A stretch of DNA of 64,000 nucleotides from Candidatus Methylomirabilota bacterium (GCA_035644195.1 DASQOZ010000070.1:463-64462); one strand, 5' to 3'. Counted from the first letter of the stretch, positions 29,089 to 63,614 are shown. Notes: generated by a model from the sequence alone, not told the origin. Numbers and translations are program-made.

Positions 29089-29202
29089 AATGTCTGGCAG
29101 AAACGTTGAGAAAATTATTCCCATAAGCCGCGTTTACTGACAGGTGGACGATTTTTCCCCTTGTTTGAACCGAAAATTCTCGAATTGCCGAGGAAACGGA
29201 CA

Positions 29203-29292
29203 TGGCGGAAGGGGTGGGATTCGAACCCACGGCAGCCTTGCGACTACTCCTGATTTCGAGTCAGGTGCCTTTAACCACTCAGCCACCCTTCC
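29203..29292 (-). tRNA. tRNA-Ser (anticodon CGA), encoded CCA
   Basis: The reverse complement is GGAAGGGTGGCTGAGTGGTTAAAGGCACCTGACTCGAAATCAGGAGTAGTCGCAAGGCTGCCGTGGGTTCGAATCCCACCCCTTCCGCCA. It has a 7-bp acceptor stem, the anticodon loop CT-CGA-AA, a long variable arm and a GGTTCGAATCC T-arm. Confidence 0.9.
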
Positions 29293-29308
29293 ATTATCAT
29301 TGATTTAA

Positions 29309-29899
29309 TTGACTTTTTTTGCATTCCTGCAAATCGTCAATTTACATTTTCTATACTATACGCTGAAAGCGAGTTCACAGCATAAAACAGAAGCACGTTG
29401 GCAAAAAACGCCCGTGGCCAATCTCATGCGCTACGTTCAATCAGGAAACTACTATGCCCGAATTCGCGTGCGCAGCAAGTTGATTTGGAAATCGCTCAAG
29501 ACCGACCGAATCAGCGTCGCCAAATTGCGCTTGAGCGATTTTCAAAGAGAGGAACGCCCGCGCGCCGCCGCGCGCAAGGCCGTTGCGCTGCAAACTTACC
29601 GGGAACGGCTGAAGGGCGACCACTCTCTCAAAGAGCGAAGCAAAACATATCGGGAAGAACGAATCTCTGCTCTGTTGAAATCGTGGCTCGTTCTGGCCGA
29701 AAAAGATATTTCTCAAATTTCAAAATCCGACTGTTTGAATTGGGCTGCCGAATACGGATTGAAAGCCAGCCCGTCATCTTTTAATAACACGGTGGGCACG
29801 CTCAAGCAGATTTTGGACGTCGCGGTCGAGGCTGGGGCGCGTTATGACAATCCGGCTGTTCACAATCTAACGGTGATTCACCGAAATTTTCGTGAGTGA
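29309..29899 (+). pseudogene. Tyrosine recombinase (phage integrase) N-terminal fragment
   Basis: YYARIRVRSKLIWKSLKTDRISVAKLRL (arm-binding region) and SFNNTVGTLKQILDVAVEAGARYDNPA (SAM-like core-binding domain). The ORF stops before any R..HxxR..Y catalytic domain. It is followed by 280 nt of AT-rich non-coding DNA. Confidence 0.6.
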
Positions 29900-30177
29900 T
29901 TAAAATTCACAATCTATTTTTATTTTACCCGCATGATTGATTTCCCTGCGATGCTCACCAGATGGCTCCGGCCAAAAGGCACGCAGTAGGTTTTCAAATA
30001 ATTTTTATTCGCGTTGATTTTCATGTAATCACATTGGTTTTATTGGCGATTGTTGCTTTCTGCCGATTTGATTTAGCACCTCTCCTTTGGCTTTGATTTG
30101 ATGCTTTTTGCTCTAAAACACAAAATGGCATCAGATTGACTGCCTTTTATTTTAATGGCCTCGCAACAATTTTCCCA

Positions 30178-31164
30178 TCACCCGCCGATGGCGGTCATCA
30201 CGCGCTGCGGCTGGTAATTCTCGCGGAACAGATGTTCGGAAGGCTTTTGCACGAGCGTTTCACAAATCAATTTGTGCAAATACGCCGCGTCAATCTGCGG
30301 ACGCAACGCCAGCTTCAAATCCGTTTCCAAATGGTTGCCGAGGCACGGACGCAATTTGCCATCGCACGTCAGCCGCATCTTGTTGCAACGCTCGCAAAAA
30401 TGCAGGTCGCTCAACGCGCCGATCAAACCCATCGTCACGCCGCGTTTTTTGAGGCGAAAATATTTTGCCGGGCCAAAACCGAATGATTCCGTGAGCGGCT
30501 CCATCTCATCCTCGCGTCGCAGCTTCGCAAACAATTCCGTGACCGGGAAAAAATTCTTTTCGCTCAACATTTCCGTCAGGCTTACGGGCATCAATTCGAT
30601 GAAACGGATCGCGACATCGTGTTCCGCCGCGAAGTCGAGCAGCCGGAAAACTTCGCCGTCATTTTTCCCGCGCATCAGGACCGTGTTCAGCTTCACCGAC
30701 TCGAAACCGAGTTCTTTCACAAGCTTGATGCCGCGTAAAACCGGCGCGACATCGCCGTTCGTAATCGCGCGGTAAATCGCCGGGTCGAGAGCATCGAGAC
30801 TGATGTTGATGCGGCGCAAACCCGCGTCAAACAAGGGTTTTGCGAGTTCCTGCAATCGCGTGCCGTTCGTCGTGAGCAGCACCGATTCGACGCCCGGCGT
30901 GGCAATCAAATCGCGGATAAAATCCACCGCGCCTGGACGGATCAGCGGTTCACCGCCAGTCACGCGAAACCGTTTGAAGCCCAGCGCCGTCGTCGCGCGC
31001 ACGATGGCGAGCAGTTCGTCGTAGGCGAGAATTTCCCCGCGCGGCAGCCAGTCGGCGTAATTTTCCGGCAGGCAATACAGACAGCGTTCGTTGCACCGGT
31101 CGGTGATCGAGATGCGCAAATAGTCAACTGTGCGCCCGAACGAGTCTGTGCGATTCAAATTCAT
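30178..31164 (-). CDS. moaA: GTP 3',8-cyclase MoaA
   Basis: Radical-SAM motif CNERCLYCLPE and a C-terminal cluster region CERCNKMRLTCDGKLRPCL. Confidence 0.9.
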   Translation of the reverse strand: MNLNRTDSFGRTVDYLRISITDRCNERCLYCLPENYADWLPRGEILAYDELLAIVRATTALGFKRFRVTGGEPLIRPGAVDFIRDLIATPGVESVLLTTNGTRLQELAKPLFDAGLRRINISLDALDPAIYRAITNGDVAPVLRGIKLVKELGFESVKLNTVLMRGKNDGEVFRLLDFAAEHDVAIRFIELMPVSLTEMLSEKNFFPVTELFAKLRREDEMEPLTESFGFGPAKYFRLKKRGVTMGLIGALSDLHFCERCNKMRLTCDGKLRPCLGNHLETDLKLALRPQIDAAYLHKLICETLVQKPSEHLFRENYQPQRVMTAIGG

Positions 31165-31664
31165 TTCTTATTCGCTACTTTTCCATGCGGATCGTCACCG
31201 CGCAAGTGAGCCAACCCTTCGCGAATCGCCGGTGACAAAATTTCCAGACATTCGCGCACCGCCGACGGCTTGCCTGGCAAATTGACAATCAATGATTTTC
31301 CGCGCGTGCCCGCGACCGCGCGCGATAAAATTGCCGTCTTCACTTTGGCGAACGATTGCACGCGCATGATTTCGCCGAAGCCGGGCAGCTCCTTTTCCAA
31401 AATAATTTTTGTAGCTTCCGGCGTCACGTCGCGCACGGAAATTCCCGTGCCGCCTGTTGTCACAATTAAATCGCATTTCAACTCATCCGCGAACTTTTTC
31501 AATGCCGCCGAAATCAAATCAATTTCATCCGGCACAATCGCCGATTCAAATTTCGCCGCGCCACCAAGAAATTCGCGCAGCACGCTTTCAATTTCCGGCC
31601 CGCTGCGGTCTTCGTAAATCCCCGCGCTCGCGCGGTCGCTGATGGTGATGCGCCCGATTTTCAT
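31161..31664 (-). CDS. mog: Molybdopterin adenylyltransferase MogA/MoaB-type
   Basis: TISDRASAG...DLIVTTGGTGISVRDVTPEAT motif. 4-nt overlaps on both sides. Confidence 0.8.
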   Translation of the reverse strand: MKIGRITISDRASAGIYEDRSGPEIESVLREFLGGAAKFESAIVPDEIDLISAALKKFADELKCDLIVTTGGTGISVRDVTPEATKIILEKELPGFGEIMRVQSFAKVKTAILSRAVAGTRGKSLIVNLPGKPSAVRECLEILSPAIREGLAHLRGDDPHGKVANKK

Positions 31665-32110
31665 TCCTTGATTTTCTTTGCAACGCGGATGTTTTCAATC
31701 CGCATCGTCTTGTCCACAGCCTTGCACATGTCGTAAAGAGTCAGCGCCGCCACGCAAACGCCCGTGAGCGCTTCCATCTCCACGCCGGTCTGCGCGCACG
31801 TCTCCGCCGCGCAAAAAATCTCAATCGCCGCCGCGCGCACTTTGAAAGTCACTTCGACATGGTTCAACGCCAGCGGATGACACAGCGGGATCAATTCGCC
31901 CGTCCGCTTCGCCGCCTGGATTCCGGCAATCTGCGCCACCGTCAGAACATCGCCTTTTGGCAGCGCATTTTTTTTCAACGCGCGAATCGTTGCCGGCGCA
32001 CAAACCAATTTTCCTTCGGCCACCGCGCGCCGCTGTTGGATTGGTTTTGCGCCCACGTTCACCATGCGCGCCGCGCCCGCCGCGTTGAGATGGGAAAATT
32101 TCTTTTTCAT
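31661..32110 (-). CDS. moaC: Cyclic pyranopterin monophosphate synthase MoaC
   Basis: MVNVGAKP...KGDVLTVAQIAGIQAAKRTGELIPLCHPL is the typical MoaC core. Confidence 0.9.
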   Translation of the reverse strand: MKKKFSHLNAAGAARMVNVGAKPIQQRRAVAEGKLVCAPATIRALKKNALPKGDVLTVAQIAGIQAAKRTGELIPLCHPLALNHVEVTFKVRAAAIEIFCAAETCAQTGVEMEALTGVCVAALTLYDMCKAVDKTMRIENIRVAKKIKE

Positions 32111-32114
32111 CGAA

Positions 32115-33794
32115 TCACGAACCCATCATACTTCTCAACGGTAAAAATTCCAACTCCGCTCCCGCTTCCAACTCCGCACAATTCACCGGCACGCGAATCA
32201 GCGCGTTCGCCGCTGCGAAGCAAGTCACGTCGCCGGAACTCGACCATTTCAGCGGATGCAAATTTATTTCGCCGTTCAAAAACTCCAACCGTGCCGGCCA
32301 GAGCGTTTCGCGCGGACACGGCTTGTCGTCCAATTTTGTGGCGAGCCTGCCACGCATAAATTTTGGCGCAATTTCGCCGGTCAGTTTCGCGAGCGCCGTG
32401 GCGACGGCGAAATGAAAACAGACAAAATGCGAGAGCGGGTTGCCCGGCAAACCAAACGCCACGCGCGAACCGTTCACGCCGAAGATGAGCGGCTTGCCAG
32501 GACGCACGTTGACTTGTGAAAAAGCGGTTTCAAAACCGAGCCGTTCCAGCAGCGGACGCGTGAAATCTTTGTCGCCGACACTCGCTCCTCCGGAAATCAA
32601 AATCAAATCCGCCGCCGCGATGCGGTTCAAATCAAGTTGCGCCCACGCCGCCTCAAAATTTTCCGGCAGATGTTTCTGGTCCAAGTCACACGAAAAGTTT
32701 TGCAACAGGCCGCGAATCAAAATCGAATTGCTGTCGCGGATTTGCCCCGGCTCCGGCGTTTGATCAGGCGGAATAATCTCATCGCCCGTCGTGAAGTGTG
32801 CCACGCGCAATCGTGGACTCACCAGCGGCTGCGTGCAGCCCGCCGTCGCCAGCAACGCGAGTTTGCCCGCGTCCAGCCGCACGCCGGATTTCATGAGCGG
32901 CTGTCCAGCCTTCACATCTTCGCCGCGCTTGCGGAGGCTTGATCCACTTTCGAGTTTTGTGATTTTAATTTTGTCGCCGTTGCGCTCGACGTGTTCCTGC
33001 ATTACTACGCGCACACCGTCGCACGGCAACGCCGCGCCCGTCGCCACGCGCACCGCTTCACCGCGCCGGAGCAGGCGCGGTTTCCAATCCGCCGCGTGGA
33101 TCGTGTCCACGATTTGAAAATTGTCGGACGCATCATCGGCCAGAATTGCGTAACCATCGCGCGTGGAGCGGTCATTCGGCGGCAAATCTTCCGGCGCGCA
33201 AACCGTTTCGCGCAGCACGCGGCCAAAAGATTCTTCCAGCGGAACGCGAACCGGCGGCAACGGCTGGCAGCTCGAACTGATTTCCGAAATAGCTTCGTCC
33301 AACGATTTGTAGGAGACGACGTGAGGGGTCTCTGATTTTTTTGAAGTGAGACTCGTCACCTCGTCTCCTACAAAATCAATTGGCAACGCGCGTCGTTTCC
33401 AGATCGGCACGTCGCGTTTGAGGCCATCCATGAATTCGCCGGTCAACGCGATGGCTTCCGCGCGATGCCTGGCGGCGACGCCAAGATAAATTGCCGTTTC
33501 GCCGACGGGAATGATTCCGACGCGATGAATCACTTTGGCGGCGAGACACGGATGCCGCGTGGAAATGTCCTGAATCAGCCGCCGGATTTCGCGCGCGGCC
33601 ATTTCAGGATAGGCTTCATATTCAAGCGCGGAAATTGTTCCGCCATTTTCTTCATCACGGACCAAGCCGCGAAATTCAATCCACGCACCAAGCGCGGTCT
33701 TTGCAGACGGCCACCATTGCGGCGGAGAAATTTTTTCCGCAATCGGTCCTTTCGTGAGTTGAATTTCAATTTCCATGCGACAAAATAATTTCAT
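32115..33794 (-). CDS. MoaE-MoeA fusion protein (molybdopterin synthase catalytic subunit + molybdopterin molybdenumtransferase)
   Basis: The N-terminal roughly 145 aa are MoaE-like (EYEAYPEMA...DVPIWKR). The rest is MoeA-like (SLDEAI...RSTRDGYAI...SGGASVGDKD). The joint is the repeat-encoded DFVGDEVTSLTSKKSETPHVVSYK. Confidence 0.85.
   Translation of the reverse strand: MKLFCRMEIEIQLTKGPIAEKISPPQWWPSAKTALGAWIEFRGLVRDEENGGTISALEYEAYPEMAAREIRRLIQDISTRHPCLAAKVIHRVGIIPVGETAIYLGVAARHRAEAIALTGEFMDGLKRDVPIWKRRALPIDFVGDEVTSLTSKKSETPHVVSYKSLDEAISEISSSCQPLPPVRVPLEESFGRVLRETVCAPEDLPPNDRSTRDGYAILADDASDNFQIVDTIHAADWKPRLLRRGEAVRVATGAALPCDGVRVVMQEHVERNGDKIKITKLESGSSLRKRGEDVKAGQPLMKSGVRLDAGKLALLATAGCTQPLVSPRLRVAHFTTGDEIIPPDQTPEPGQIRDSNSILIRGLLQNFSCDLDQKHLPENFEAAWAQLDLNRIAAADLILISGGASVGDKDFTRPLLERLGFETAFSQVNVRPGKPLIFGVNGSRVAFGLPGNPLSHFVCFHFAVATALAKLTGEIAPKFMRGRLATKLDDKPCPRETLWPARLEFLNGEINLHPLKWSSSGDVTCFAAANALIRVPVNCAELEAGAELEFLPLRSMMGS
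33308..33372. repeat. GTAG...CTAC palindromic element (copy C) at the moaE/moeA joint
   Basis: tgtaggagacgacgtgaggggtctc tgatttttttgaagt gagactcgtcacctcgtctcctaca. The arm sequences are closest to copy A. Confidence 0.8.
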
Positions 33795-34030
33795 CCGCCC
33801 GACACCGGAGGAATCAACGCCACTTCATCCGAACCTGAAAAAACCGTTTGTTCATCGGCGTATTCCCAATTGCACGCGAGCCGGGTGTTTTTTTTATGAT
33901 CTGCCAGCGCGGGAATTTTTTCGGTCAAAATTTTCCAAAGCTGTTCGCCGTTCAGCGGCGATGCCGGCGCAAGTTCCATTTCGGCGCAGCCGGCCACGTC
34001 CTTGAGCTGGGCAAAAAATAAAACGCGCAT
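33791..34030 (-). CDS. moaD: Molybdopterin synthase sulfur carrier MoaD
   Basis: I prefer the internal start MRVLFFAQLKD. The C-terminus ends ...PPVSGG. An ATGA overlap joins it to the moaE start. Confidence 0.7.
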   Translation of the reverse strand: MRVLFFAQLKDVAGCAEMELAPASPLNGEQLWKILTEKIPALADHKKNTRLACNWEYADEQTVFSGSDEVALIPPVSGG

Positions 34031-34043
34031 GACGAATGAGAAT

Positions 34044-34805
34044 TCAACCCGCCGCTTCCAGCAACAATTTTCCGCCGGCAAAAATCAGCACGCCCGCCAG
34101 CACGCGGCTGAAGGTGACGCTGCTCCAGCGCCGCGCGCCGAGATGCGTGCCGAGCAGCGCGCCGATGACGGCGGGCAGCGTGAGCCAGAGCAGCGGCCCG
34201 GCGTGCGTGATTTTTTCCCAGCCCGCGCCGACGAGTCCGGCGATGGAGTTCACCACGATGAATCCCGCCGCGATGCCGCCGGTGGTTTTTGGTTTCACCC
34301 AGCGGAACAGATAAAGCAGCGGACTCAAAAAAACTCCGCCGCCGATTCCTGTCAATCCCGCCAGAAATCCCAGCACCGCGCCGACAAGCAATGCGACCGG
34401 CAAAAAACATTTTCGCACGGCGACATCATCCGTCTGCCAGCGAGAACGGAACAGCAGAATAATTCCGGCAACCGACAGAACCGCGCCCAAAATAATTTTG
34501 TAAGTTTGCGCGCTGACGTGGATTTTGCTGCCGAGAAAAGCCAATGGAATTGAGGCGATGGCGAACGAAAGAAAAATTTTCCACTCGAAATGCCCGGCCT
34601 TGTAAAATCGCCAGAACGCGATGCTGGCGACGAAAATGTTGACTATCAACACCGCCACCTTGGCGGACGCGGGCGCGACGCCGAGCAGCGCAAGCGCGGC
34701 GAGATAACCCGTCGCGCCGCCATGGCCGACGGAGGAATAAAAAAATGCGACGCCGAAAACGGCGGCGATCAGGACTGTCCAATTCAATGTCGTCAGGTCG
34801 TGCAT
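34044..34805 (-). CDS. TauE/SafE family sulfite-exporter-like membrane protein
   Basis: 253 aa with about 8 TM helices and a Gly-rich repeat pattern (GGGVFLSPLL) typical of TauE/SafE. Confidence 0.7.
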   Translation of the reverse strand: MHDLTTLNWTVLIAAVFGVAFFYSSVGHGGATGYLAALALLGVAPASAKVAVLIVNIFVASIAFWRFYKAGHFEWKIFLSFAIASIPLAFLGSKIHVSAQTYKIILGAVLSVAGIILLFRSRWQTDDVAVRKCFLPVALLVGAVLGFLAGLTGIGGGVFLSPLLYLFRWVKPKTTGGIAAGFIVVNSIAGLVGAGWEKITHAGPLLWLTLPAVIGALLGTHLGARRWSSVTFSRVLAGVLIFAGGKLLLEAAG

Positions 34806-35365
34806 GGCAAATCGGCGGGCAAGTTCCAGTTGGCAAAATATATTGCTTCGCTCGCAGGTGGTTCAACGAACCGGGCGAGGCCGGATCGGACGCATTGTCC
34901 GGCAAAATCTTTTACGGCGAAACATCCGTTTTCAAGCTGCGCCATTGCCAGCGCATGAGTTGATTTCGGATAAATCGCAACGAGCGGTTCGATGTGGCCG
35001 GACAACTTTGGAATGACCCCGCAAGTTTCCGAACAACCGCCGGCCAGCCGCTGCAAAAATTCCGCAGTCATTTCGGGCAAATCTATCGCCAGCACGAGCA
35101 GCGATGAAGTCGTTGCGGCATCGAGCGCGCTTTCGATTCCGGTGAGCGGCCCGGCATCGGGAAATTTATCCAGCAACACACGGCGCTCGAATGCGGAGTA
35201 ATTTGTCCCTGGGCAACCGGAAATAAAAATTTCTGCCGCGCCTGCTTCCCGCGCGAGTTGAATCTGCCGCGCCAGCAAAGTTTGTCCGCCAATTTTCAAA
35301 AACGCCTTGTCGCAACCCATGCGCGAGGATTTTCCACCGGCGAGAATGACGGCGCTGAAGTTCAT
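34793..35365 (-). CDS. mobA: Molybdenum cofactor guanylyltransferase MobA
   Basis: The N-terminal signature is AVILAGGKSSRMGCDKAFL. Confidence 0.8.
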   Translation of the reverse strand: MNFSAVILAGGKSSRMGCDKAFLKIGGQTLLARQIQLAREAGAAEIFISGCPGTNYSAFERRVLLDKFPDAGPLTGIESALDAATTSSLLVLAIDLPEMTAEFLQRLAGGCSETCGVIPKLSGHIEPLVAIYPKSTHALAMAQLENGCFAVKDFAGQCVRSGLARFVEPPASEAIYFANWNLPADLPCTT

Positions 35366-35820
35366 TTTTCAACGCGAAGCATTCCGCCGGTGAGAATTCG
35401 CGCACGCAGGCCGCCGCGCGCGTGCAGCAATTTTTCCGCGCCCGGCGCGATGGCGTCGTCCATCCAATGACACGGGCTGCATTCGGCCGTGCCCGCAAAG
35501 CGCACGCTCTGGATTTCAAATTCCTTGCCGATGAGCAAATTCAAATCCACGCCCGCCGTGACGACGTTTCGCCGCGTGACGCCGGGTGATTTGCCGTTCA
35601 CGCCGAGCTTGCGGCAAATGTCTTCAAAAACTTCCGATGCAAAAAAAGTGATCTGGCCTTTGTAGTCGTGCTTGAAGTCAAAAAAACGGTCATCTTCAAT
35701 TCCCCGTCCGGCCACGCAACGGATTTCCGCGCGTTCAATTAAAGGATATTCGCCCGGCGGCTGCTCGTGATGGCCGAAAAAATTGTGGCCGGGTGAAATA
35801 TAGAGATGGCGAATCTTCAC
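35362..35820 (-). CDS. MOSC domain-containing protein
   Basis: 152 aa with the conserved C-terminal Cys context ECSPCHWM and RRNVVTAGVDLN. Confidence 0.7.
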   Translation of the reverse strand: MKIRHLYISPGHNFFGHHEQPPGEYPLIERAEIRCVAGRGIEDDRFFDFKHDYKGQITFFASEVFEDICRKLGVNGKSPGVTRRNVVTAGVDLNLLIGKEFEIQSVRFAGTAECSPCHWMDDAIAPGAEKLLHARGGLRARILTGGMLRVEK

Positions 35821-35855
35821 GGTTCAAAGATGACATTTTTGACGGCGAAGAAAAA

Positions 35856-38054
35856 TTATTTCTTCATGGCTTCGACTCGCACCGCGCAATGCTTGTAGCT
35901 TGGCTGGCGCGAATGCGGGTCAAAATCCGAGCGCGTCAGCTTGTTCGTGATGCCGTAGTGCATCGGAATAAAAATTTGCCCCGCACGCACGCCGGCCGTC
36001 ACGAACGCCGTGCATTCCACCTTCGCGCGACGCGAAATCACGCTGGCTTTTGAGTTCGGCGCGATGCCCAGCCGCGCGGCGTCGGCGGGATTGATCTCAA
36101 CGTAGGCGTTCGCCGGATAAAGCTTCCGCAGCACGTCGGATTTTTCCGTGCGCGTGTTCGTGTGCCACTGCGCGCTCGTGCCGCGACCAGTCAGCAACAC
36201 GAAGGGAAATTCCGCGTCCGTTGGTTCGGCGACCGGGCGCGGCGCATCGAATAGAAATTTCGCCTTGCCGTCTTCGTGGAAAAATTTCCCATCGGCGAAT
36301 AGGCGTCTTTCCTTTTGTAGAGACGAGTCTTTCTGAAACGGCCACTGGATTCCGCCTTCGTCGTCCAGATGTTTGTAATCCGCAATGCCGGTGATGTCGC
36401 AAGGCTGGCTGCGCGAGATTTCCTTCATCAATTGGAACGCCGCTTCCGGCGAACTCCATTTACGGAACATTTCACCACAGCCCCAATACCCGGCGACGAG
36501 CTTGCAAATGTTGAAATCGCTCAACGCCTGGCCCGGCGCGCGGCGGACTTTTTTCACAAGGCCGATGCGCCGTTCTGAATTGATGAGCGTGCCTTCCTTT
36601 TCGCCCCAGCCGGCGGCGGGCAAAAAAAGATGCGCGCGCTGCGCCGTCTCCGTCGTCGGATACAAATCCTGCACGACAAGAAATTCCAGCTTGTCCGCCA
36701 GCCGGTTGAAATTGTCCCGGTCAATCCACGAATGCGAACTGTTCGTCGCCATCACCCACAGTCCTTTGATTTTTCCGTCAGCGATGCCCTGAACGATTTG
36801 ATCATAAGCCCAACTCGGCGCAGTCGGAATTTTTTGTTCAGGAATTTCCAAAATCGAACTGATTTTTTTCCGATGCTCCGAGTTTTGAAAATCGTGTCCG
36901 CCGAGCAGACTCGTGATGTTCGCGTAAAGCCGTGAACCCATCGCATTGCACTGGCCGGTGATGGAATTGGCGCCGGTGCCGGGCCGCCCGATGTTCCCGG
37001 TCATCAGCGCGAGATTGATGATGGCCTGCGCCGTGCGTGTGGCTTCGTGACCTTGATTCACACCCATTGTCCACCAGAATGAAACCGCTTTGCCGCGATG
37101 AATCGTTTCGGCGAATTGTAAAATTTCTTCCGGCGATAAATTTGTTTCCGCCGCAACTTTTTCCAAAGTGAATTGTCGCGCGAAGGACGCGAAGTCCGCG
37201 AAGTCATTTGTATTTCGCTCAATGAATTCGAGGTCAATCCAATCATTTTGAATCAGCAGATTTGCGATGCCGTAAAGCAAAACCAAATCCGATTTTGGTT
37301 TGAGCGCGACGTGCTGCGTCGCGTTCATCGCCGTTTCCGTGCGGCGCGGGTCAACGACAATGATCTGCGGACTGTTTTTATTTTGCAGCACGCGCTGCCA
37401 CATGATCGGGTGCGCGATGCACGGATTTGCGCCGACGAAAACCAAAACGTCGCTGGCTTCAAAATCCGCGTAGGTGAACGGTGGCGCGTCGAAACCGAAA
37501 CTTTGCTTGTATGCCGTGTGCGCCGTGGCCATGCACTGCCGCGTGTTCGAGTCGCAATGCAACGCGCCCATGCCGAATTTCCACAACGCGCCGAGCAGCG
37601 CCATTTCCTCGGTGCAAATTTGTCCCGTGCCGAGAAACGCCACGTTCTCGTTGCCGTGCCGCGCCATGATGTCCTTGAATTTCGACGCGAACAATTTCAT
37701 CGCGTCGTCCCAGGTCGTCGGCTGAAATTTTCCGTTCGCGTCGCGCAGCAACGGCGTCGTGCCGCGATCCGGCGCGGACAACGGCGCGAGCGCTTCCCAG
37801 CCTTTCGGACAGGCCATGCCGAGATTGACCGGATAATTTTCGTCCGCAGTCAAGTTCACCGCCTCGCCATCCTTCAAATGGATTTTCAAGCCGCAACCGG
37901 TCGAGCAAAAACCGCAGACCATCGTGGTCGTCGCATCCGGCGCAAATTTGGCCGGAACTTTGCCGAGGCCGAACTTGCCCGGATGCAAAACCAAATCTTC
38001 CGTGAGCGGCCCGGTCCACTCGCGCAAAACCGGTTTGGAAAATTTTAATTTCAC
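35856..38054 (-). CDS. nasA: Assimilatory-type nitrate reductase catalytic subunit (molybdopterin oxidoreductase, no Tat signal)
   Basis: N-terminal 4Fe-4S motif CGFCSTGCG...ACPKG, MGD-binding regions throughout, and no RRxF signal peptide. Confidence 0.8.
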
Positions 38055-43166: not shown

Positions 43167-43173
43167 CACGTCA

Positions 43174-43212
43174 TGAGAAAAGCGAGACGCGCCCCACCTT
43201 GCGATGGGGCGC
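43174..43212 (-). terminator. Rho-independent terminator-like hairpin after the porin gene
   Basis: On the minus strand, GCGCCCCA-tcgcaagg-TGGGGCGC is followed by gtctcgcTTTTCTC. It lies in the 68-nt gap before the cysJ-like start. Confidence 0.45.
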
Positions 43213-43234
43213 GGCGACGGGAGGAACATCGTCG

Positions 43235-44728
43235 CTAAAAATTGAGTGTAAATTGAACATAGACGTAATCCGCGTCGCGGTCGCCGCCGACGCCTGCGAG
43301 TGATTGCTGAATGTATTTGCCCGTGAAGAAATGGCCGTAACCGGCTTCGATTTGCGCGTAGCGCGTGAGCGCGTAGCCGGCAATCAAATCCAATTCGGTG
43401 CCGACAAATGGGCTGTTGCCGGAATTAATGCCGTAGCCGCCGGTCGTGCGAGGCGCACCACCGACATTGTAAAAAAAGTCGTGCGTATTCGCGAGCCAGA
43501 AGCCGTGACCTTCTAGCGCGACGCTCAAACGCGACGTCGGTTTGAGCGTCAGTTCGCCGCGAACGTCCTGGATGTTTTGCAGCGAGACGAAATCCATGTA
43601 GCCGTAAAATTTGTGGTTCGTCGGAAACAAATTGTCGAACGTGCCGTGCGTGCCATCGGCTTTATTGTCATCTCCGGAGCTATAGGTGTATTCAATTCCT
43701 AGCCGTGGCGTCGCCCACCAATCGGAAAATGTGTAACCGCCTTGCGCGATAAACATGAAAGCATCCTGTCGCAGGCGCGGAGCGGTCAACGCCGGTTTGG
43801 TTGGATCGGCGAAATCGCCGAATTGATACGCGCCTTCGAGCGAATAATCGTAGTTGCCCAATTCGCCCGGCTTGGATTTCAAGCGTCCGCCGATTGTGTA
43901 AATGTCGCGCGCGGTCGGCTGCGGAAATTGCGGGCTTGGCTCCGTGTTGATAGCTTTGCGGTCGGCGTTGCGCGACAGAAAATAAACGTCGAGAATCGTT
44001 TTGGGAATTTTTGTGCTCGTCGCATAGACGCCGGAAAACCAATCGTGCGTGTTGTCCACGTCGAAGCCGCCGTTTTCAGGAATGACCGGATAGCCGGTGA
44101 AAAAGTCCGCGCCGAAAAATTCATTTTGCCAGCGGACTTTCGCCGTGTCGAACGCCCGGCCGATGTTGTTCCAGCCATATGCACCGATGAGCCGTTCTTC
44201 ACCGTAGGACAATTCCTGCCGTCCGGCTTTGAGCGAAAGCGGAAATTCCTTGTGATTGCCGATGGTGAAATACGCCTGATGCAAATCAATTGCGTCGGCT
44301 TCCGGTCCATTTTCCTTTCGCTTCACCGTGCCGGGAATGGCGGGCGCATTTGCGTAGGCGAAACGTTCGTCGCTCAAAGCCACGCTGCTTTGCGCTTCGG
44401 TGTAGATGCTCCACCACTTTTCTGTGTAGCCGATGTGAAGGCGCAAACGATTCAAAAAATAATCGTTGACCATGTCCGCGCCGTGATCACGAAAATCCAC
44501 GGAATCGGCGTGACCTTGAATTGCAAAACCGGATTTGGATTCGTAACGGAAACGGTCGTTGCCGCCGAAATCCCATTGGTTCATGTAGGGATTCTGTGCG
44601 CGCAGGTATTCGTTGAGGAATCCCTGGAACGGCGTGGGCGGCGGCGGCGGCGTGTATTGAGCGTGGACTTGGTTGAGGGCGGCGAGCACGAGCGCTCCTG
44701 CCGACAATGTTTTCAGGGTTGGCTTCAT
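43235..44728 (-). CDS. Outer-membrane porin (alginate-export/nitrate-cluster porin-like)
   Basis: The start at 44728 gives the signal peptide MKPTLKTLSAGALVLAALNQVHA. The sequence is beta-rich with alternating aromatic residues and ends in a terminal F. Confidence 0.6.
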   Translation of the reverse strand: MKPTLKTLSAGALVLAALNQVHAQYTPPPPPTPFQGFLNEYLRAQNPYMNQWDFGGNDRFRYESKSGFAIQGHADSVDFRDHGADMVNDYFLNRLRLHIGYTEKWWSIYTEAQSSVALSDERFAYANAPAIPGTVKRKENGPEADAIDLHQAYFTIGNHKEFPLSLKAGRQELSYGEERLIGAYGWNNIGRAFDTAKVRWQNEFFGADFFTGYPVIPENGGFDVDNTHDWFSGVYATSTKIPKTILDVYFLSRNADRKAINTEPSPQFPQPTARDIYTIGGRLKSKPGELGNYDYSLEGAYQFGDFADPTKPALTAPRLRQDAFMFIAQGGYTFSDWWATPRLGIEYTYSSGDDNKADGTHGTFDNLFPTNHKFYGYMDFVSLQNIQDVRGELTLKPTSRLSVALEGHGFWLANTHDFFYNVGGAPRTTGGYGINSGNSPFVGTELDLIAGYALTRYAQIEAGYGHFFTGKYIQQSLAGVGGDRDADYVYVQFTLNF

Positions 44729-44762
44729 GATTTTTGTTTTTGGGGTTGGCATTTTGTTTGGT

Positions 44763-45632
44763 TCAAGCATGGTTGAATGCGGTTAAATTATTTTTGACGG
44801 CTGGCGGCAAAACGTTTTCCACGGGCGACTGTTCGATTTTTGGCATGACGGTTTTCCGATGCGCGCGGACTTCGAGAAATTCAATCAACTGCTCGCGCAG
44901 TTTGTAATAATCGGGATGCTCCATGACGGCCTTGCGCTCGCGCGGGCGCGGAAACTTCACGTCCATGATTTCGCCGACTGCCGCCGCCGGGCCGTCGGTC
45001 ATGCAAACGATGCGGTCGCTCAAGAACAACGCCTCGTCCACGTCATGCGTGACCATGAGCGCGGTGATTTTATTTTTGCGCCAGAGTTCGATGAGGACTT
45101 GCTGCAATTCGTAACGCGTGAGCGAGTCGAGCATCCCAAACGGCTCGTCGAGCAAAAGCATTTTCGGCTTGAGCGCAAACGCGCGCGCGATGCCGACGCG
45201 CTGCTTCATGCCCTGCGAAAGTTCGGCGGGCTTTTTATGCATCGCATCGCCGAGGCCGACGACGGTGAGATAGTATTCGACGATTTCGCGCCGCTCCTGT
45301 TTGCTTGCCGTGAAAAAGACTTGCTCGACGCCGAGCAGCACGTTTTCGTAGGCCGTCATCCACGGCAGCAGCGAAGGCGATTGGAAAACCACGCCGCGAT
45401 CCGGTCCCGCGCCGGAAAGCTCACGCCCGGCCAGAATGATTCCGCCGTCGGAAATTTCATTCAATCCGGCCAGCATCGAAAGCACCGTGGATTTTCCGCA
45501 GCCGGAATGCCCGATGAGCGTGACAAATTCCCCTTTCTGGATGTTCAGGTTGAAATCCTTGACGATCACCGCGTCGCCCTTTGGCGTCGGATAAACCTTC
45601 GCAAGGTTCGAGAGTTCGACGTAATTGCTCAC
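44763..45632 (-). CDS. nrtD: Nitrate/sulfonate/bicarbonate-type ABC ATP-binding protein (NrtD-like)
   Basis: Walker [10 protein letters not shown], signature LSQGMKQR and Walker B LLLDEPFG. Confidence 0.8.
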
Positions 45633-46534
45633 GAGTTGACCTCCACGGATTCTTCCTTCATTTCATTTTTGCGAATTGGCGTCTTGCGCCAGCCCGTCAT
45701 GTTGCGCGGGATGTTCAAATCTTCCGGCTCGATGTCCGGCAAAATCAATTTGCGCGTGATGGCCGTGTGCCGCTCCTGCTTCGAGCCGAGCATGAATTCC
45801 ACGATTTCGCGGCGCAGTTGCTTGAAATGCGGGTCGTGGTTGATGGATTTGCGGTCGCGCGGACGCGGAATCTCAACGGTGAAGCTCGACCCCAGCGTTG
45901 CGCCCGGCCCGGCGGTCAGCGGAATGATCCGGTCTGCAAGATAAATTCCCTCGTCAGGATCGTTCGTGATCATCACGACGGTTTTTTTGTCGTCGGACCA
46001 AATGCGGGAAACTTCGTCCTGCAACGTCGCGCGCGTGAGCGCATCGAGCGCGGAAAGCGGCTCGTCGAGCAATAAAATTTGCGGATCCATCGCCAGCGCG
46101 CGCGCGACGGAAACGCGCTGCCTCATGCCGCCGGAAAGTTCGCCCGGCTTTTTATCGCGCGCGGGCGTGAGATTCACCATCGCGATGTATTTCTCGACGT
46201 GCGCTTTTCGTTTGTCGTCCGACCAATTGGGATTCACAGCTTCGACGGCGAGCAAAATATTTTCAAATACTGTCAGCCACGGTAGCAGCGAATAATTTTG
46301 AAAAACAATGCCGCGATCCGGTCCCGGCTGCGTGATCTCCAAATCGTTCAACATCAGCGAACCGTTGCTGGGCTTGAGCAAACCCGCGATGAGCGAGATG
46401 AGCGTCGTCTTGCCCGCGCCGGAAAAACCGACGATGGCGACGAACTCACCTTTTTCGACGGACAGGTTGATGTCTTTCAACACCGGCGAGCCGCCGAAAT
46501 TTTTCGAGATGTTTTTGAGTTCGAGATAAGCCAC
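45629..46534 (-). CDS. nrtC: Nitrate/sulfonate/bicarbonate-type ABC ATP-binding protein (NrtC-like, no NrtA-like C-domain)
   Basis: A GTG start at 46534, 6 nt after the nrtB stop, gives (M)[14 protein letters not shown]. Walker [10 protein letters not shown] and signature LSGGMRQR. Confidence 0.75.
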
Positions 46535-46539
46535 AAAAT

Positions 46540-47325
46540 TTACGCCGTTTTGAATTTTTGTTCCACCACGCTCATCAGGCGGTCGAGGATGAAGCCCACG
46601 ACGCCAATCGTGACGATGCACAAAATGATGTGTTCGTAGATGAGCGAGTTGTATTCCTGCCACAGAAAACCGCCGACGCCGGGACGACCGGTCAACATTT
46701 CAGCCGCGACGATGACGAGCCACGCAATGCCGAGGCTCAACCGGAATCCCGTGAACATATATGGCAGCGACGCGGGAATCAGAACCTTGAACAAGGTTTT
46801 CGTGCGCGAGAGCTTCAAAACTTTCGCGACGTTCAGATAATCCTGCGGAATCGCGCGCACGCCGACTGCGGTGTTCAAAACCGTCGGCCACATCGAGCAA
46901 ATGGCGATGGTGAACAGCGCGCCGAGTTCGGAAGCATCCTTGCCCGCGCCCATGAACAACACGAGTCCGAGCGGCAACCACGCGAGCGGCGAAACCGGAC
47001 GAAGCACTTGAATGATGGGATCAAAAATTTTCGTGAACGTTTTGGACAACCCCAGAAAAAATCCAATCGGCGTTCCGATGAGCAGCGCGAGCAAATAACC
47101 CTTTGCGACGAGTTGCAATGAATACCAGGTGAAACGCAAAATACCCTGGTCCATTTCACCGCGCTTGGCGAACGGCTCGACGATGTAAGGCTTGCTGGTT
47201 TCCCACGTTTTCGCCGGCGTCGGCAAGTCTTTCGCCCATGTCGCGCACGAGATTTGCCACAGGATTAAAACTGCGGCGACGCCGACGAGCGGCAAAACGA
47301 ACCAGTCAAATTTGAATGATTTCAT
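46540..47325 (-). CDS. nrtB: Nitrate ABC transporter permease NrtB
   Basis: 261 aa with 6 TM helices and a binding-protein-dependent transport EAA-type loop ([22 protein letters not shown]). Confidence 0.8.
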
Positions 47326-47326
47326 T

Positions 47327-48622
47327 TCAGCCTTTCACATTGTTGACCGCGAAACTTTTTGCATAAGCCTCCAAATCGCCGGTCGGGTCAAATGTCGCGC
47401 CGTCGAACAGCGTTTCTTTGTCATTGTTCATGCCGCCGTGCGCGTAGCCGATTTCCTTCATCGCCTCTTCGTAAATGTCCGTGCGCATGACTTGCTTGGC
47501 GATGCCGTCATAATCCGGCGTGCCTTTGAGCAAACCCCAGCGGCGATATTGCGAGAGAAACCATTTCGCAAATTTCGGCTGCGGGTAATTGCAGTTGCGG
47601 CTGCTGAAGATCATGTAGTTCGGGTCTTCCTTCGTGCGACCGTCGCCGTAATCGTAATGACCTTGCAACCGGCCAAGAATCGTCTTGGCATCACAGTTGA
47701 TGTAAGTCGGTTTGCTGACAATTTCGCATTGCTCCGGGCGGTTGCTCAAATCGTCGAGCCAGATGCTCGCCTCGTTCAACGCTTTCAAAACCGCTTTCAC
47801 CGTCTTCGGATTTTTGTCGGCGAATTCGGCGAGGAACGCGCAAACTTTTTCTGGATGATCTTTCCAGATGTCCTGCGTGGAAACGGAGGTGTAACCGATC
47901 TTGTCCGCGATGGCGCGCGCGCCCCACGGTTCACCGACGCAGAAGCCGTCCATCTTGCCGATTTTCATGTTCGCCACCATTTGCGCGGGCGGAACAGTGA
48001 TGAGCGAAACGTCCTTGTCGGGATTGATGCCGCCTGCGCCGAGATAATAACGCATCCACATCGCGTGCGTGCCCGGCGGAAAAGTCATCGCAAACGTCAG
48101 CGGTTCACCGAGTAAATTTGCTTTTTCGACGAACGGCTTGATGGCTTTCGGATCCGCGCCGACTTTTCCTTTCCACTCCGTCTTGAGTGAAATCGCCTGT
48201 CCGTTGCGGTTCATCAGCCACGGAATGATCATCGGTTTTTTCGGTGAACCGGCCAGTCCCATCGTCGAGGCAATCGGCATTCCGATGAGCATATGCGTCG
48301 CTTGAATCGTGCCAGTCGAAAGATTGTCGCGGATGGCCGCCCAGTTCGCGCCTTTCGTCACGGTGGAATTGATGCCGTATTTTTTGAAGAAACCTTTTTC
48401 GTGCGCGATGACGATGGGCGAGCAATCCGTCAGCGCAATCATGCCGAAGTTCATCGTCGCCGCTTCCGGCGCGTCGCTGGCATAGACGCTGCCGATCCAG
48501 CTTTTGGGCAGTCCGGCGAACAACGCGGTGAGCGTGACGCCTTTGACGGCTTTGCCGAGAAATTCGCGGCGATTCAAATTATGCTGGGACGAGTTCGTTT
48601 TCTGATTGGGTGTGTTTTTCAT
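47327..48622 (-). CDS. nrtA: Nitrate ABC transporter substrate-binding protein NrtA (Tat signal)
   Basis: The start at 48622 gives MKNTPNQKTNSSQHNLNRREFLGKAV (twin-arginine motif), followed by the NrtA/CmpA-type fold. The upstream 91 codons of the track ORF are rejected. Confidence 0.8.
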   Translation of the reverse strand: MKNTPNQKTNSSQHNLNRREFLGKAVKGVTLTALFAGLPKSWIGSVYASDAPEAATMNFGMIALTDCSPIVIAHEKGFFKKYGINSTVTKGANWAAIRDNLSTGTIQATHMLIGMPIASTMGLAGSPKKPMIIPWLMNRNGQAISLKTEWKGKVGADPKAIKPFVEKANLLGEPLTFAMTFPPGTHAMWMRYYLGAGGINPDKDVSLITVPPAQMVANMKIGKMDGFCVGEPWGARAIADKIGYTSVSTQDIWKDHPEKVCAFLAEFADKNPKTVKAVLKALNEASIWLDDLSNRPEQCEIVSKPTYINCDAKTILGRLQGHYDYGDGRTKEDPNYMIFSSRNCNYPQPKFAKWFLSQYRRWGLLKGTPDYDGIAKQVMRTDIYEEAMKEIGYAHGGMNNDKETLFDGATFDPTGDLEAYAKSFAVNNVKG

Positions 48623-49676
48623 AGTCAATGTTGGTGGTGGAATTACGAAGGCAGAGTGCCCGGTCAAAAATGTCCGTGCGGAAAATGCGGCAACCCAGTT
48701 CGTCGGTGAGCGGCGCAGGATTCGGACACAATCCGCTGGCGCGCAGCCGTTGAAGAATCCACTCGGCTTTGTCGCTCGAAGGTTCGTTCGCGTTGTGCCG
48801 GTGAAACACGCTGAAGTTCGGGATGTGCCGCACGCCGCCGTGGCCGAAATCAAAATCCGCGCTGAACCCGCGCCGCAACGCCGCCGCCGGAACATTCACA
48901 TAAGCCGGCTGCGCGAGCGTGGTGATGATTTCCTCGCGATTGTCCGGCGCGTCGCAAAATTCGCAGGCTTCCAGCAGCGCGGCGACGAGCGCGACGTGTT
49001 CCGCATCGCGTCTCTCGGCAAAATCGCGGCGCACCATGAGGACTTTTTCGGGATGGCCGGGCGCAAGCTCCGCGCTCGCGGCCACGCACCAGCCGACGCG
49101 CGATTGCACGGCGACCGAGTTCCACGGTTCGCCCACACAAAAGCCGTCGAGATTTCCGGCCTTCAGGTTCGCCACCATCTGCGGCGGCGGCACGACGACG
49201 ATGCGCACGTCGCGGTCGGGATGAATTCCTGCCGCCGCCAGCCAGTCGCGCAGCAGAAAATTGTGCGATGAAAACGGATAAACAACACCGAAGACAAAAG
49301 TTTTCTCGCGGCGCGAACGATTGATTTCTTCGCGCAATGTTTTTCCATCACGCACGCCGCGTTTCCAAAGTTCATTTGAGAGAGTGATTGCGTTGCCGTG
49401 CAAATTGAGAACGAGCGCGGTCAGGCAGTCGCAGGAAATCGAGCCGAGTCCGAGCGTCGCGGCGACGGGCATTCCGGCGACGGCGTGCGCGGCCTCCAGT
49501 TCGCCGTGGATGATTTTGTCGCGGATCGTCGCCCAGCCGAGTTCGCGGCTCAACGTGACGTTTAATCCAAATTTACGGAATAATCCGAGTTCGTGCGCCA
49601 TCACGAGCGGCGCGCAATCGGTCAACGGCACAAAGCCGACGCGCAATTTTCTTTGCGTCACGGGCATTTTGGTCAT
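48579..49676 (-). CDS. Cytoplasmic NrtA-like protein (NasS-like nitrate/nitrite sensor candidate)
   Basis: The start MTKMPVTQRKLRVGFVPLTDCAPLV has no signal peptide. It is homologous in pattern to the adjacent NrtA (GFCVGEPWN). Confidence 0.55.
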   Translation of the reverse strand: MTKMPVTQRKLRVGFVPLTDCAPLVMAHELGLFRKFGLNVTLSRELGWATIRDKIIHGELEAAHAVAGMPVAATLGLGSISCDCLTALVLNLHGNAITLSNELWKRGVRDGKTLREEINRSRREKTFVFGVVYPFSSHNFLLRDWLAAAGIHPDRDVRIVVVPPPQMVANLKAGNLDGFCVGEPWNSVAVQSRVGWCVAASAELAPGHPEKVLMVRRDFAERRDAEHVALVAALLEACEFCDAPDNREEIITTLAQPAYVNVPAAALRRGFSADFDFGHGGVRHIPNFSVFHRHNANEPSSDKAEWILQRLRASGLCPNPAPLTDELGCRIFRTDIFDRALCLRNSTTNIDYEKHTQSENELVPA

Positions 49677-49726
49677 GTGCGTTTTTTTGTTCACTCGTCG
49701 CGGTTTTTCAGCCGCCGCCTGATGAT

Positions 49727-49744
49727 TAAGCGCGCCATGTGCCA
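49727..49744 (-). promoter_or_regulatory. Candidate sigma-54 (-24/-12) promoter for the nitrate operon
   Basis: The minus strand reads TGGCAC-atggc-GCGCt, with GG-N10-GC spacing conserved and a degenerate -12 element. It lies about 50 nt upstream of the NasS-like ATG. Confidence 0.3.
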
Positions 49745-49810
49745 AAGGTTGATTTCGGCGCGATGATTGCTACTCTTAATTTCAATGGAAACAATGAGCC
49801 GGATTCATAC

Positions 49811-50719
49811 ATGAGCGCGCCGCTCGACAGTCGGCAGGTTCGCGCGTTCTGCGCGCTCGCGCGCACGGGCAGCTTCACGCAGGCCGCGCGCGAGCTGCAC
49901 CTCACCCAATCAGGCATCAGCCACTCGATGAAGGCGCTGGAAGCCGATATTGGCTGTCGCCTTTTGGACAGGCTGGGTAAAAAGGTCGTGCTTACGCAGG
50001 CGGGTGAACAATTGCTGCATCACTCGAAAAAAATTTTGCAGGAAATGAAAACCGCGCGCGAAACGCTCGGACATCTCGGCAAATGGGGCAAAGGAAGACT
50101 GCGGATTGGCGCGAGTACGACGGCGTGCCAGCACATCATTCCGCCAGTATTGCGGGAGTTCAAAGAAAGTTTTCCCGAACACGCCATCACCATCGAACCG
50201 GGCGACACGCCTGAGATGGTTGATGCGCTGCTGCACCATCGGATTGACCTTGCGCTCTCGCTCGAGGCCAGCAATGAACCGCAGCTTGAATTTCATCCGC
50301 TTTTCACGGACGAACTGCATTTCATCGTCGCCGCGCTGCACCCGTGGGCGAAGGCCGGGCGTGTAGAGCGTGCGGAAATTCCGCGCCAGAATTACATCCT
50401 CTACAACAAGCGCAGCATCACGTTCCGGCTCATCGAGGAATATTTTCGCCGCGAGCAAATGGTGCTGAACACCGTGATTGAAGCCGGCAGCATGGAGGCG
50501 ACAAAGGAACTGGTGAAACTCGGCATCGGCGTGAGCATCCTCGCGCCGTGGATTGCTCAAAAAGAAATCGGGGAAGGCTCGCTTGTCGCGCTGCCGCTCG
50601 GACGAAAAAAATTGCAGCGGCGCTGGGGGATTTTGCACTGGCGCGGCAAGCGACTGAACCTCGCGGAGGAAACTTTCATCGGCTTGTGCGAATCGGCAAC
50701 CAGTTTATTACAAGGTTGA
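49811..50719 (+). CDS. LysR-family transcriptional regulator
   Basis: The start MSAPLDSRQVRAFCALARTGSFTQAARELHLTQSGISHSMKALE contains the HTH. It is divergent from the nitrate operon. Confidence 0.85.
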   Translation: MSAPLDSRQVRAFCALARTGSFTQAARELHLTQSGISHSMKALEADIGCRLLDRLGKKVVLTQAGEQLLHHSKKILQEMKTARETLGHLGKWGKGRLRIGASTTACQHIIPPVLREFKESFPEHAITIEPGDTPEMVDALLHHRIDLALSLEASNEPQLEFHPLFTDELHFIVAALHPWAKAGRVERAEIPRQNYILYNKRSITFRLIEEYFRREQMVLNTVIEAGSMEATKELVKLGIGVSILAPWIAQKEIGEGSLVALPLGRKKLQRRWGILHWRGKRLNLAEETFIGLCESATSLLQG

Positions 50720-50826
50720 AACCATTGCTTGCGAAAAATGCAAAGATACTGGCAATTTAGTTTGCGTTGTTTCGATTAAATCTGAAATGTCTATGAGAGT
50801 AAAATAAGGGAAATTCGCGTTTTTCA

Positions 50827-50866
50827 ATTTCGAGTCAGGTGCCTTTAACCATTCAGCCACCCTTCC
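50827..50866 (-). pseudogene. tRNA-Ser 5'-half copy (nt 1-40, through the anticodon loop)
   Basis: atttcgagtcaggtgcctttaaccattcagccacccttcc matches 29253-29292 with one mismatch, in the same orientation. Confidence 0.8.
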
Positions 50867-51002
50867 AGCCGAAACCTCAAAAATTAAACCAGCAAACTTT
50901 GTCGCGGTAAATCTTAATCCGGTGAACAACCCGCGTTTGACTATTCAACCGCGATTCACTAATGTCGCACCTCGTAAAATACAACAAAGGGAATTCAAAA
51001 TT

Positions 51003-63473: not shown

Positions 63474-63614
63474 AAGGGACGCGTAGTCTGCATCAGCACC
63501 GGGTGATTTTCCAGTATTTTTTGTTGAAAAATGCGAACTGTCCGGCAGGGACGCTTCCATGACCAATGCGAATCGCGCTTGCCGCTGCGCGCCGCTTCTT
63601 TCATTCTCCTGCAA

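Follow-up and report, generated by a model that had tools for sequence, protein, structure and literature searches.

Why does the 5′ half of a tRNA gene stand a second time, some 21.6 kb from the gene itself, beside recA? The question is raised by a 64,000-nucleotide stretch of DNA deposited under Candidatus Methylomirabilota bacterium (GCA_035644195.1, DASQOZ010000070.1:463-64462; below, "the window," with positions counted from its first letter), in which a tRNA-Ser(CGA) gene and a partial copy of it enclose genes for nitrate assimilation and for synthesis of molybdenum cofactor (Moco). An initial annotation, made from the sequence alone, had read the enclosed block as a fossil tRNA-Ser island. 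We find that this 21.6-kb block is very probably a decayed island of 5′ polarity, brought to the tRNA-Ser gene by a tyrosine integrase, and that the working tRNA gene owes its 5′ half to the element.

To characterize the repeat, we began from the tRNA gene, which is the only one that ARAGORN finds in the window (29203-29292, minus strand) and which scores 62 bits against the Rfam tRNA model. Its 5′ 40 nt match the minus strand at two places, within the gene itself (29253-29292, 0 mismatches) and between the LysR gene and recA (50827-50866, 39/40 with one mismatch); a repeat search gave direct repeats of 41 nt, at 29253-29293 and at 50827-50867, spaced 21,574 nt apart. Across 100 shuffles of the sequence, no match to these 40 nt was seen at three or fewer mismatches, and fuzzy searches located no further 5′ or 3′ piece of tRNA-Ser in the 64 kb. 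The copy comprises tRNA nucleotides 1 to 40, that is, the 5′ end, the entire 7-nt anticodon loop, and one additional base, and it carries a single G-to-A change at a position where all other loci compared have G. Thus, gene, strand, and same-orientation copy are as first annotated; the copy had been said to end in the anticodon loop, which is nearly exact, but its true end is the 3′ edge of the loop, one base further. The arrangement also has several of the features by which the Islander database recognizes islands: a full tRNA gene (tDNA) and a cognate fragment lie on one replicon in the same orientation, the length falls inside 2 to 200 kb, and the copy is an end fragment located upstream of the tRNA-Ser gene in the tRNA orientation. 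Of a further Islander feature, an integrase ORF (open reading frame) within the island, the window has a 176-residue N-terminal pseudogene.

We then scanned one genome per species with the 40-nt 5′ half and obtained 118 loci, almost all of them from Verrucomicrobiota (Limisphaerales and Pedosphaera-like); loci fetched for comparison are cited here by L numbers. An empty site with tRNA-Ser next to recA, which had been named among the things to look for, was found at L013 and L014. At both, an intact tRNA-Ser(cga) gene is divergent from a recA that is 89 to 91% identical to that of the window, with about 130 nt between them. At L013, recA is followed by a homolog of the window's orf53381, so that the linkage of tRNA, recA, and orf53381 is kept, and the tRNA-recA block is inverted relative to homologs of the window's 57- to 60-kb genes.

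The DNA upstream of the two copies has different relatives. Between the 40-nt copy and recA (50868-51002), the window is 77 to 83% identical to the DNA upstream of the intact tRNA-Ser genes at L013 and L014 and of a tRNA-Ser fragment at L115. Upstream of the working tRNA, the DNA bears no relation to 50868-51002 and resembles instead the region between tRNA and integrase gene (int) at the occupied loci L063, L070, L076, and L122, in agreement with the earlier proposal that the element supplied the tRNA's 5′ half. In an alignment of these loci, the DNA upstream of the window's fragment and of L115 agreed with that of the empty sites, L013 and L014, and divergence began exactly after CTCGAAAT; the working tRNA resembled the L122 element in its upstream DNA and L013 and L014 in its 3′ half, which differs from their genes by only a few substitutions (one versus L014). 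Judged from sequence, this is a textbook relationship of attachment sites (attB, attL, and attR). Because the fragment has native upstream DNA and the working gene has element-type upstream DNA, we take the fragment beside recA to be the original 5′ half with its native promoter, and the 5′ half and upstream region of the working gene to have come from the element; its 3′ flank is chromosomal. On that 3′ side, the 70 nt next to tRNA-Ser are kept in genomes carrying different upstream elements (L041, L046, L030, L103, and L034), and a homolog of the left neighbor of tRNA-Ser, 77% identical, adjoins the tRNA at L030. These 70 nt (29133-29202), which include a hairpin, are 74 to 90% conserved at the five loci just named and at L117, more than would be expected of a plain spacer.

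The tRNA-proximal boundary had been annotated as carrying a truncated tyrosine integrase just inside it, and this description holds. The open reading frame (ORF) at 29309-29899 has no significant match in Pfam or PHROGs; in a large protein search, however, the stump drew 287 homologs, some with PF00589 or PF02899. Positions 29363-29863 align at 72% identity to residues 1 to 176 of an intact 371-amino-acid (aa) integrase, and the frame stays open past this homologous part to a stop at 29899. Intact relatives are 371 to 386 aa long (about 490 to 495 aa in two copies with a C-terminal extension) and show the motifs HHDLRH...GH...Y and a PF00589 match (E = 1e-17). The window copy has no PF00589 match, and no remnant of the catalytic domain was found anywhere in the window; it is therefore a pseudogene of a tyrosine recombinase, and with the integrase dead, current mobility is not expected.

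Both junctions also have element-type DNA on their inner side. From 29349 onward, the arm next to the tRNA is 82 to 85% identical to L063, L122, L070, and L076; these four loci carry two AGTATAGAA repeats, and the window lacks about 13 nt that include one of them. At the distal junction, the 28 nt next to the fragment read TGAAAAACGCGAATTTCCCTTATTTTAC in the window and TGAAAAATGCGTTTTTCCCTTATTTTCA at L085 (23/28 identical), and BLAST gives 90% identity over 30 nt spanning the junction. To judge by this element-type upstream DNA and the conserved TA-rich box in it, transcription of the tRNA would start from an element-derived promoter. The DNA inward of the integrase stump (29900-30177) has no similarity to any fetched locus and contains no ORF of at least 90 aa, and searches of the window revealed neither extra att remnants nor tandem structure inside the island.

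A search for intact homologs of the integrase elsewhere, which had been advised at the outset, found them consistently at the 5′ ends of tRNA genes. All four homologs on long contigs lie about 70 to 80 nt from a tRNA 5′ end and divergent from it, at Pro(tgg), Arg(tct), Ser(cga), and Pro(ggg). Among species-representative genomes, an int homolog occupies the 5′ side, again divergent, of 27 of the 89 assessable intact tRNA-Ser(cga) genes (about 30%); nine of these 27 integrases are full length and many are stumps. A complete island of 5.1 kb is present at L002; its far end, beside a housekeeping gene, carries a second copy of the tRNA-Arg 5′ half, up to and including the anticodon loop. The island at L050 measures about 4.6 kb, whereas L026 holds a tandem array. 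About 19 tRNA-Ser loci are 5′-half fragments that all stop at the 3′ edge of the anticodon loop, as in the window and L002. After ...CTCGAAAT, identity is not continued into the remaining tRNA in these fragments, a statement about their ends that has to be read with the scan pattern in mind, which itself demanded the 40-mer ending in ...CTCGAAAT. Some 10 of the roughly 19 then run into a conserved arm, TG[TA]AAAAC.C..TTTTT.GCTAT.TTTAGC..., and the 28 nt of the window belong to this motif family. More distant relatives in IMG/VR (37 to 39% identity; 38% for L208 and L209) have the same layout at tRNA-Ser(cga) and tRNA-Lys(ttt). On two viral contigs (L210 and L211), tRNA-Arg(tct) is represented by its 5′ half alone, through the anticodon loop, about 100 to 120 nt upstream of int and divergent from it, which is the arrangement that would be expected of an unintegrated attP; the attP of the window's element itself has ceased to exist. 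In some members of the clade the cargo is large and varied, including type IV secretion system (T4SS) genes and restriction-modification genes.

The comparison also turned up loci that depart from this layout. At L206 (~6010-6060) and L207 (~9870-9925), whose integrases are 36% identical, the 3′ part of a tRNA (T arm and acceptor end) lies upstream of int on the same strand; this is the classical polarity, and both polarities therefore occur among fairly close integrase relatives. Element-type upstream DNA without int was seen at tRNA-Ser(cga) at L036, L041, L048, and L066, and a third type of upstream DNA, with GGGATACAAA repeats, at L011, L033, L058, and L110. At L001, 88 nt separate the intact tRNA-Pro(tgg) gene from a downstream 30-nt copy of its 3′ end (9755-9784); the copy is on the far side of the tRNA from the 5′-polar element and could be the scar of a separate event of classical polarity at the same tRNA. 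We also asked whether the integrase is regularly split near 290 aa, as L001, L002, L004, and L005 had suggested, and rejected the idea: the frameshift positions differ, and nine full-length copies exist elsewhere. The single frameshifts at these four loci are most likely assembly indel errors; because gene calls break such integrases into pieces of about 290 and 100 aa, protein-length statistics for the family are misleading.

The stump could belong to an undescribed clade of tyrosine integrases, spread across the Verrucomicrobiota genomes sampled, that always swaps in the tRNA 5′ half together with a promoter, at Ser-CGA, Pro, Arg, and Lys genes, and that occupies about 30% of tRNA-Ser(CGA) genes; we put this forward tentatively, with somewhat less than even confidence. 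Our literature search found no paper on such elements in Verrucomicrobia, and the size and uniformity of the clade may be new. If the proposal is correct, expression of these tRNAs is routinely passed to promoters of mobile elements and stays there permanently once the integrase decays, and the clade could carry whole metabolic modules, such as nitrate assimilation with Moco synthesis. Together with the relatives of classical polarity at about 36% identity, it would also offer a natural system in which to ask why integrases nearly always take the 3′ part of the gene.

These observations are best accounted for by the following course of events. The starting state would have been a chromosomal tRNA-Ser(CGA) gene head-to-head with recA. 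The attP of the incoming element would have contained, in order, a distal arm, the anticodon loop, a tRNA 5′ half, a promoter, arm repeats, and int, and its tyrosine integrase would have recombined this site with the chromosomal gene at the anticodon loop, the loop serving as overlap region and the anticodon stem as core. Cleavage within the loop is suggested by the boundary of identity and by the known class of sublocation (PMC4383910, PMC8371274). Recombination would have joined the original 3′ half to the 5′ half and promoter of the element, giving the working gene at 29203-29292, and would have left the gene's own 5′ half and native promoter next to recA (50827-50867), at a distance of 21.6 kb, with the content of the element between the two copies. 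The element would then have been immobilized as the integrase lost its start codon, nine internal residues, and its entire catalytic half, and further decay would have removed most of the distal arm and a single arm-site repeat. The end product would be a fixed metabolic block, consisting of a Moco operon and genes for nitrate uptake and reduction under a LysR regulator.

Where the cargo came from is a separate matter. LysR orthologs (75 to 94% identity) were found at 80 metagenomic loci, all adjoining nrt genes; the downstream contexts of these loci vary, and rarA/mgsA with a 5-formyl-tetrahydrofolate (THF) cyclo-ligase gene recurs across a wide range of identity. Around MoaA orthologs (92 to 93% identity), relatives have the same order of Moco genes. 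The Moco operon and the nas/nrt cluster are thus separate, ordinary loci in relatives, which makes the window block a captured composite of two modules, here found at a new location between att sites. The most economical reading, and probably the right one, is that the cargo came in with the element rather than later. Three other samples contain the island, mutated fragment included, at 99.7% identity or more, with the fragment itself identical, indicating that the island is fixed in this population.

Three further observations concern the nitrate cluster in other genomes. At the more distant loci L194 (12494-18220) and L196 (14123-19988), the LysR-nrt cluster lies 1.5 to 3 kb from homologs of the H+-pyrophosphatase (61017-63779 in the window; 61017-63998 with its neighbor) and of that neighbor, so that a nitrate cluster near this part of the chromosome also occurs in genomes without the island signature. 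At L129 (1646-1722, Met-cat), L131 (1500-1575, Arg-cct), and L188 (9942-10017, Arg-cct), the cluster is directly adjoined on its LysR side by a full tRNA gene. An integrase-like match after LysR at L167 was dropped, as neither a tRNA nor a convincing gene is present there.

Several findings weigh against the block being an integrated island. No single relative keeps both flanks; the left neighbor is kept at L030 and recA at L013 and L014. The same island at other sites, which the initial annotation had suggested seeking, was not found: neither a tRNA-Ser fragment nor recA follows LysR at any of the 80 LysR-ortholog loci, all five MoaA-ortholog loci are without tRNA, integrase, and nas/nrt genes, no second copy of the island and no intact version with its cargo turned up, and none of the other islands found has this cargo. 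The nas/nrt cluster of relatives is often beside rarA, a housekeeping context. The integrase stump is the sole surviving mobility gene, and a strict sigma-70 scan returned no promoter upstream of either tRNA copy. Finally, the block has a GC content of 55.6% versus 52.4% for the flanks, a small difference that agrees with the earlier remark that the cargo resembles its host; the k-mer comparison then proposed did give a larger tetranucleotide distance for the block, but only modestly so and with overlapping test windows. As weak evidence, this composition would fit either a related donor or amelioration.

Some of these same facts would suit a history in which a small element, like the 5-kb islands at L002 and L050, integrated at tRNA-Ser and the nitrate and Moco genes entered between attL and attR only later, through a rearrangement or recombination that also removed the integrase C terminus and the element backbone. 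In relatives, the modules of the cargo occupy ordinary chromosomal loci, apart from each other, and in the window their GC content and tetranucleotide usage are near those of the host; in addition, the integrase breaks off abruptly, next to 280 nt of DNA without a match, and the known small islands of the clade carry unrelated cargo. Late entry, however, needs a second event with two breakpoints that landed exactly within the small element, and window searches revealed no insertion sequence (IS) element, repeat, or further att remnant around the cargo. Clade members with large and varied cargo exist, so that 21 kb is not unusual, and one internal deletion accounts for the present state equally well. 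We consider late entry unlikely, if still a serious competitor for the history of the cargo.

The junctions themselves leave less room for other explanations. Fragments of tRNA genes are common in prokaryotic genomes (PMC9897764), and the window alone offers just one repeat pair, so that the 40-nt copy could be a pseudo-tRNA left by local duplication or tRNA-gene turnover, with the integrase stump nearby by coincidence. We regard this as very improbable: the copy has its end, at the 3′ edge of the anticodon loop, in common with about 19 independent fragments in other genomes and the tRNA-Arg example, element-type arms lie inside both junctions and native DNA outside them, and the integrase clade is systematically linked to tRNA 5′ ends. 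The related concern that the copy is one of many dispersed tRNA-like fragments is answered by its being unique in the window and carrying the native tRNA-recA intergenic DNA. The remaining possibility is an island of the classical kind on the other side of the tRNA (below 29203), to which the 5′-half copy would be irrelevant. Although 3′ polarity is by far the commoner case (3760/3919 Islander islands; PMC4383910) and the distant integrase relatives L206 and L207 (36% identity) have a tRNA 3′ part upstream of int, the window contains no tRNA 3′ fragment anywhere, int lies on the 5′ side, and the 3′ flank is conserved chromosomal DNA, as seen from the left-neighbor homolog at L030 and the 70 nt kept across different elements; the chance that such an island explains the locus is slight in the extreme. 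We therefore retain integration of a 5′-polar island as the explanation of the two junctions, and its features are listed in Table 1.

Table 1. Features of the proposed tRNA-Ser island and its flanks (window positions)
Feature	Position	Strand	Remarks
Terminator-like hairpin	29179..29192	-	CTCGGCAATTCGAG followed by a T-rich tail; just 3′ of tRNA-Ser, in the chromosomal 3′ flank
Working tRNA-Ser(CGA), probable chimera	29203..29292	-	Original 3′ half (29203-29252) and apparently element-derived 5′ half (29253-29292)
Putative attL identity block	29253..29293		Anticodon loop (29254-29260) as presumed crossover (overlap) region
Putative proximal arm of element	29293..29362		-10-like box AATTAAATCAA at 29300-29310 for the tRNA; one surviving AGTATAGAA arm-type repeat at 29349-29357
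Tyrosine integrase pseudogene	29363..29863	+	Residues 1-176 of ~371-386; ATG changed to CTG; 9-aa in-frame deletion
AT-rich noncoding stretch	29900..30177		Between integrase stump and moaA; presumed deletion scar
Moco operon	30178..35820	-	moaA, moaB/mog, moaC, moaE-moeA fusion, moaD (ThiS-like), tauE-like, mobA, MOSC (Pfam)
Nitrate/nitrite reduction genes	35856..43229	-	NasA-type molybdoenzyme, Fe-S/DmsC-like, NirA-type sirohaem reductase, CysJ-like flavoprotein (Pfam)
Uptake genes	43235..49667	-	Alginate_exp-type porin, nrtD, nrtC, nrtB, nrtA, second NrtA-like (NMT1_2) (Pfam); shorter start positions from L203 gene calls
LysR-family regulator	49811..50719	+	Divergent from nrt genes (Pfam)
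Putative distal arm of element	50720..50826		Core-side 28 nt (50799-50826) fit the family's fragment-adjacent motif; remainder decayed
Putative attR: displaced original tRNA-Ser 5′ half, nt 1-40	50827..50867	-	One G-to-A change
Native tRNA-Ser/recA divergent intergenic region	50868..51002		Presumed original tRNA promoter, which would now drive the stump alone
recA, chromosomal right flank	51003..52052	+	Pfam; adjacency to tRNA kept at L013 and L014

The identities first given to the cargo genes were confirmed by Pfam, with two amendments. A second NrtA-like gene (48579-49667) had been missed, and since no MoeB/ThiF-type gene was seen in the block, calling the Moco pathway complete slightly overstated the case. 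Within the moaE-moeA ORF, a 27-nt inverted repeat (33306-33374; 89% complementary, 15-nt loop) falls in the linker between MoaE and MoeA_N; it may once have been a hairpin between two genes and would now be read through. Next to the NasA-type reductase comes a 549-aa protein with Fer4_11 and a DmsC-like membrane anchor (38051-39700 for this region), and NirA is paired with a CysJ-like flavodoxin/FAD/NAD reductase (41412-43229); both the DmsC-like and the CysJ-like proteins are unusual electron-transfer partners for an assimilatory nitrate/nitrite system.

The host label deserves comment as well. The named nearest relatives of the tRNA, recA, and MoaA loci are almost all Verrucomicrobiota (Limisphaerales and Pedosphaera), in conflict with the NCBI label "Methylomirabilota bacterium" attached to this metagenome-assembled genome (MAG; third-party annotation, TPA), and the bin or its label is probably wrong. 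For this genome, the findings would place nitrate assimilation and Moco synthesis within a horizontally inserted and now fixed block, and the one tRNA-Ser(CGA) gene of the window would be chimeric and dependent on upstream DNA that the element supplied. More broadly, the comparison reveals a sizable group of islands of the rare 5′ polarity from a bacterial phylum whose mobile elements have received little attention. The group contains integrases that are still intact, small islands that are complete, and forms resembling attP, and it would lend itself to tests of the mechanism of reversed polarity and of its cost to the host.

Islands in tRNA genes with a displaced 5′ tDNA fragment were reportedly first described by Zhao and Williams in 2002 (J Bacteriol 184:859). 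The class is uncommon, as the initial annotation had noted for this polarity: 5′ tDNA fragments flank 159 of 3919 Islander islands (PMC4383910). Crossover in the anticodon loop had likewise been recognized as a known behavior, and Islander holds 2083 islands with anticodon-centered sites (PMC4383910). The window resembles members of the 5′-fragment class in having an intact tDNA and an end fragment in the same orientation with the island between them, a tyrosine integrase adjoining the tDNA, the 5′ fragment upstream of the tDNA, and an anticodon-centered site; it differs in its dead integrase stump, its Verrucomicrobiota (Limisphaerales-like) MAG host, and its cargo of nitrate-assimilation and Moco genes.

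The classical integrases that use the anticodon loop with 3′ polarity (sublocation class A of Williams 2002; Islander site A) likewise have the 7-nt loop as likely overlap and the anticodon stem as symmetric core, and the arm repeats AGTATAGAA and CAGTATCA of our elements suggest a similar heterobivalent layout. In contrast to these integrases, to whose polarity L206 and L207 (36%) keep, the window element carries the opposite half of the tRNA gene and must for this reason also supply the tRNA promoter. Another functional parallel is archaeal. PMC8371274 describes pTN3-like integrases from plasmids and viruses of Thermococcales (Cossu et al. 2017, cited there) for which attB is the 5′ half of a tRNA gene, and for which integration restores an uninterrupted tRNA gene that is expressed from the element side, in the region of the integrase promoter; the same paper states that in bacteria a recombinant tRNA is "seldomly" expressed from an element promoter. 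Unlike those systems, the window is bacterial, and its int and tRNA are divergent, with separate promoter-like boxes and a spacer of about 70 nt, and the likeness is functional only.

With respect to cargo, the window can be set beside the symbiosis island of Mesorhizobium loti, in which a site-specific integrase also brings a whole metabolic capability next to a tRNA gene. That island occupies a phe-tRNA site and is self-transmissible, 3′-polar, and still mobile. It spans 611 kb (PMC4383910), whereas the island proposed here spans 21.6 kb and would be 5′-polar and immobilized. Given that islands with 5′ polarity form a known but rare class, represented by 159 of the 3919 Islander entries and by the pTN3-like integrases, the feature in this window would be a decayed further example of a rare but known kind.

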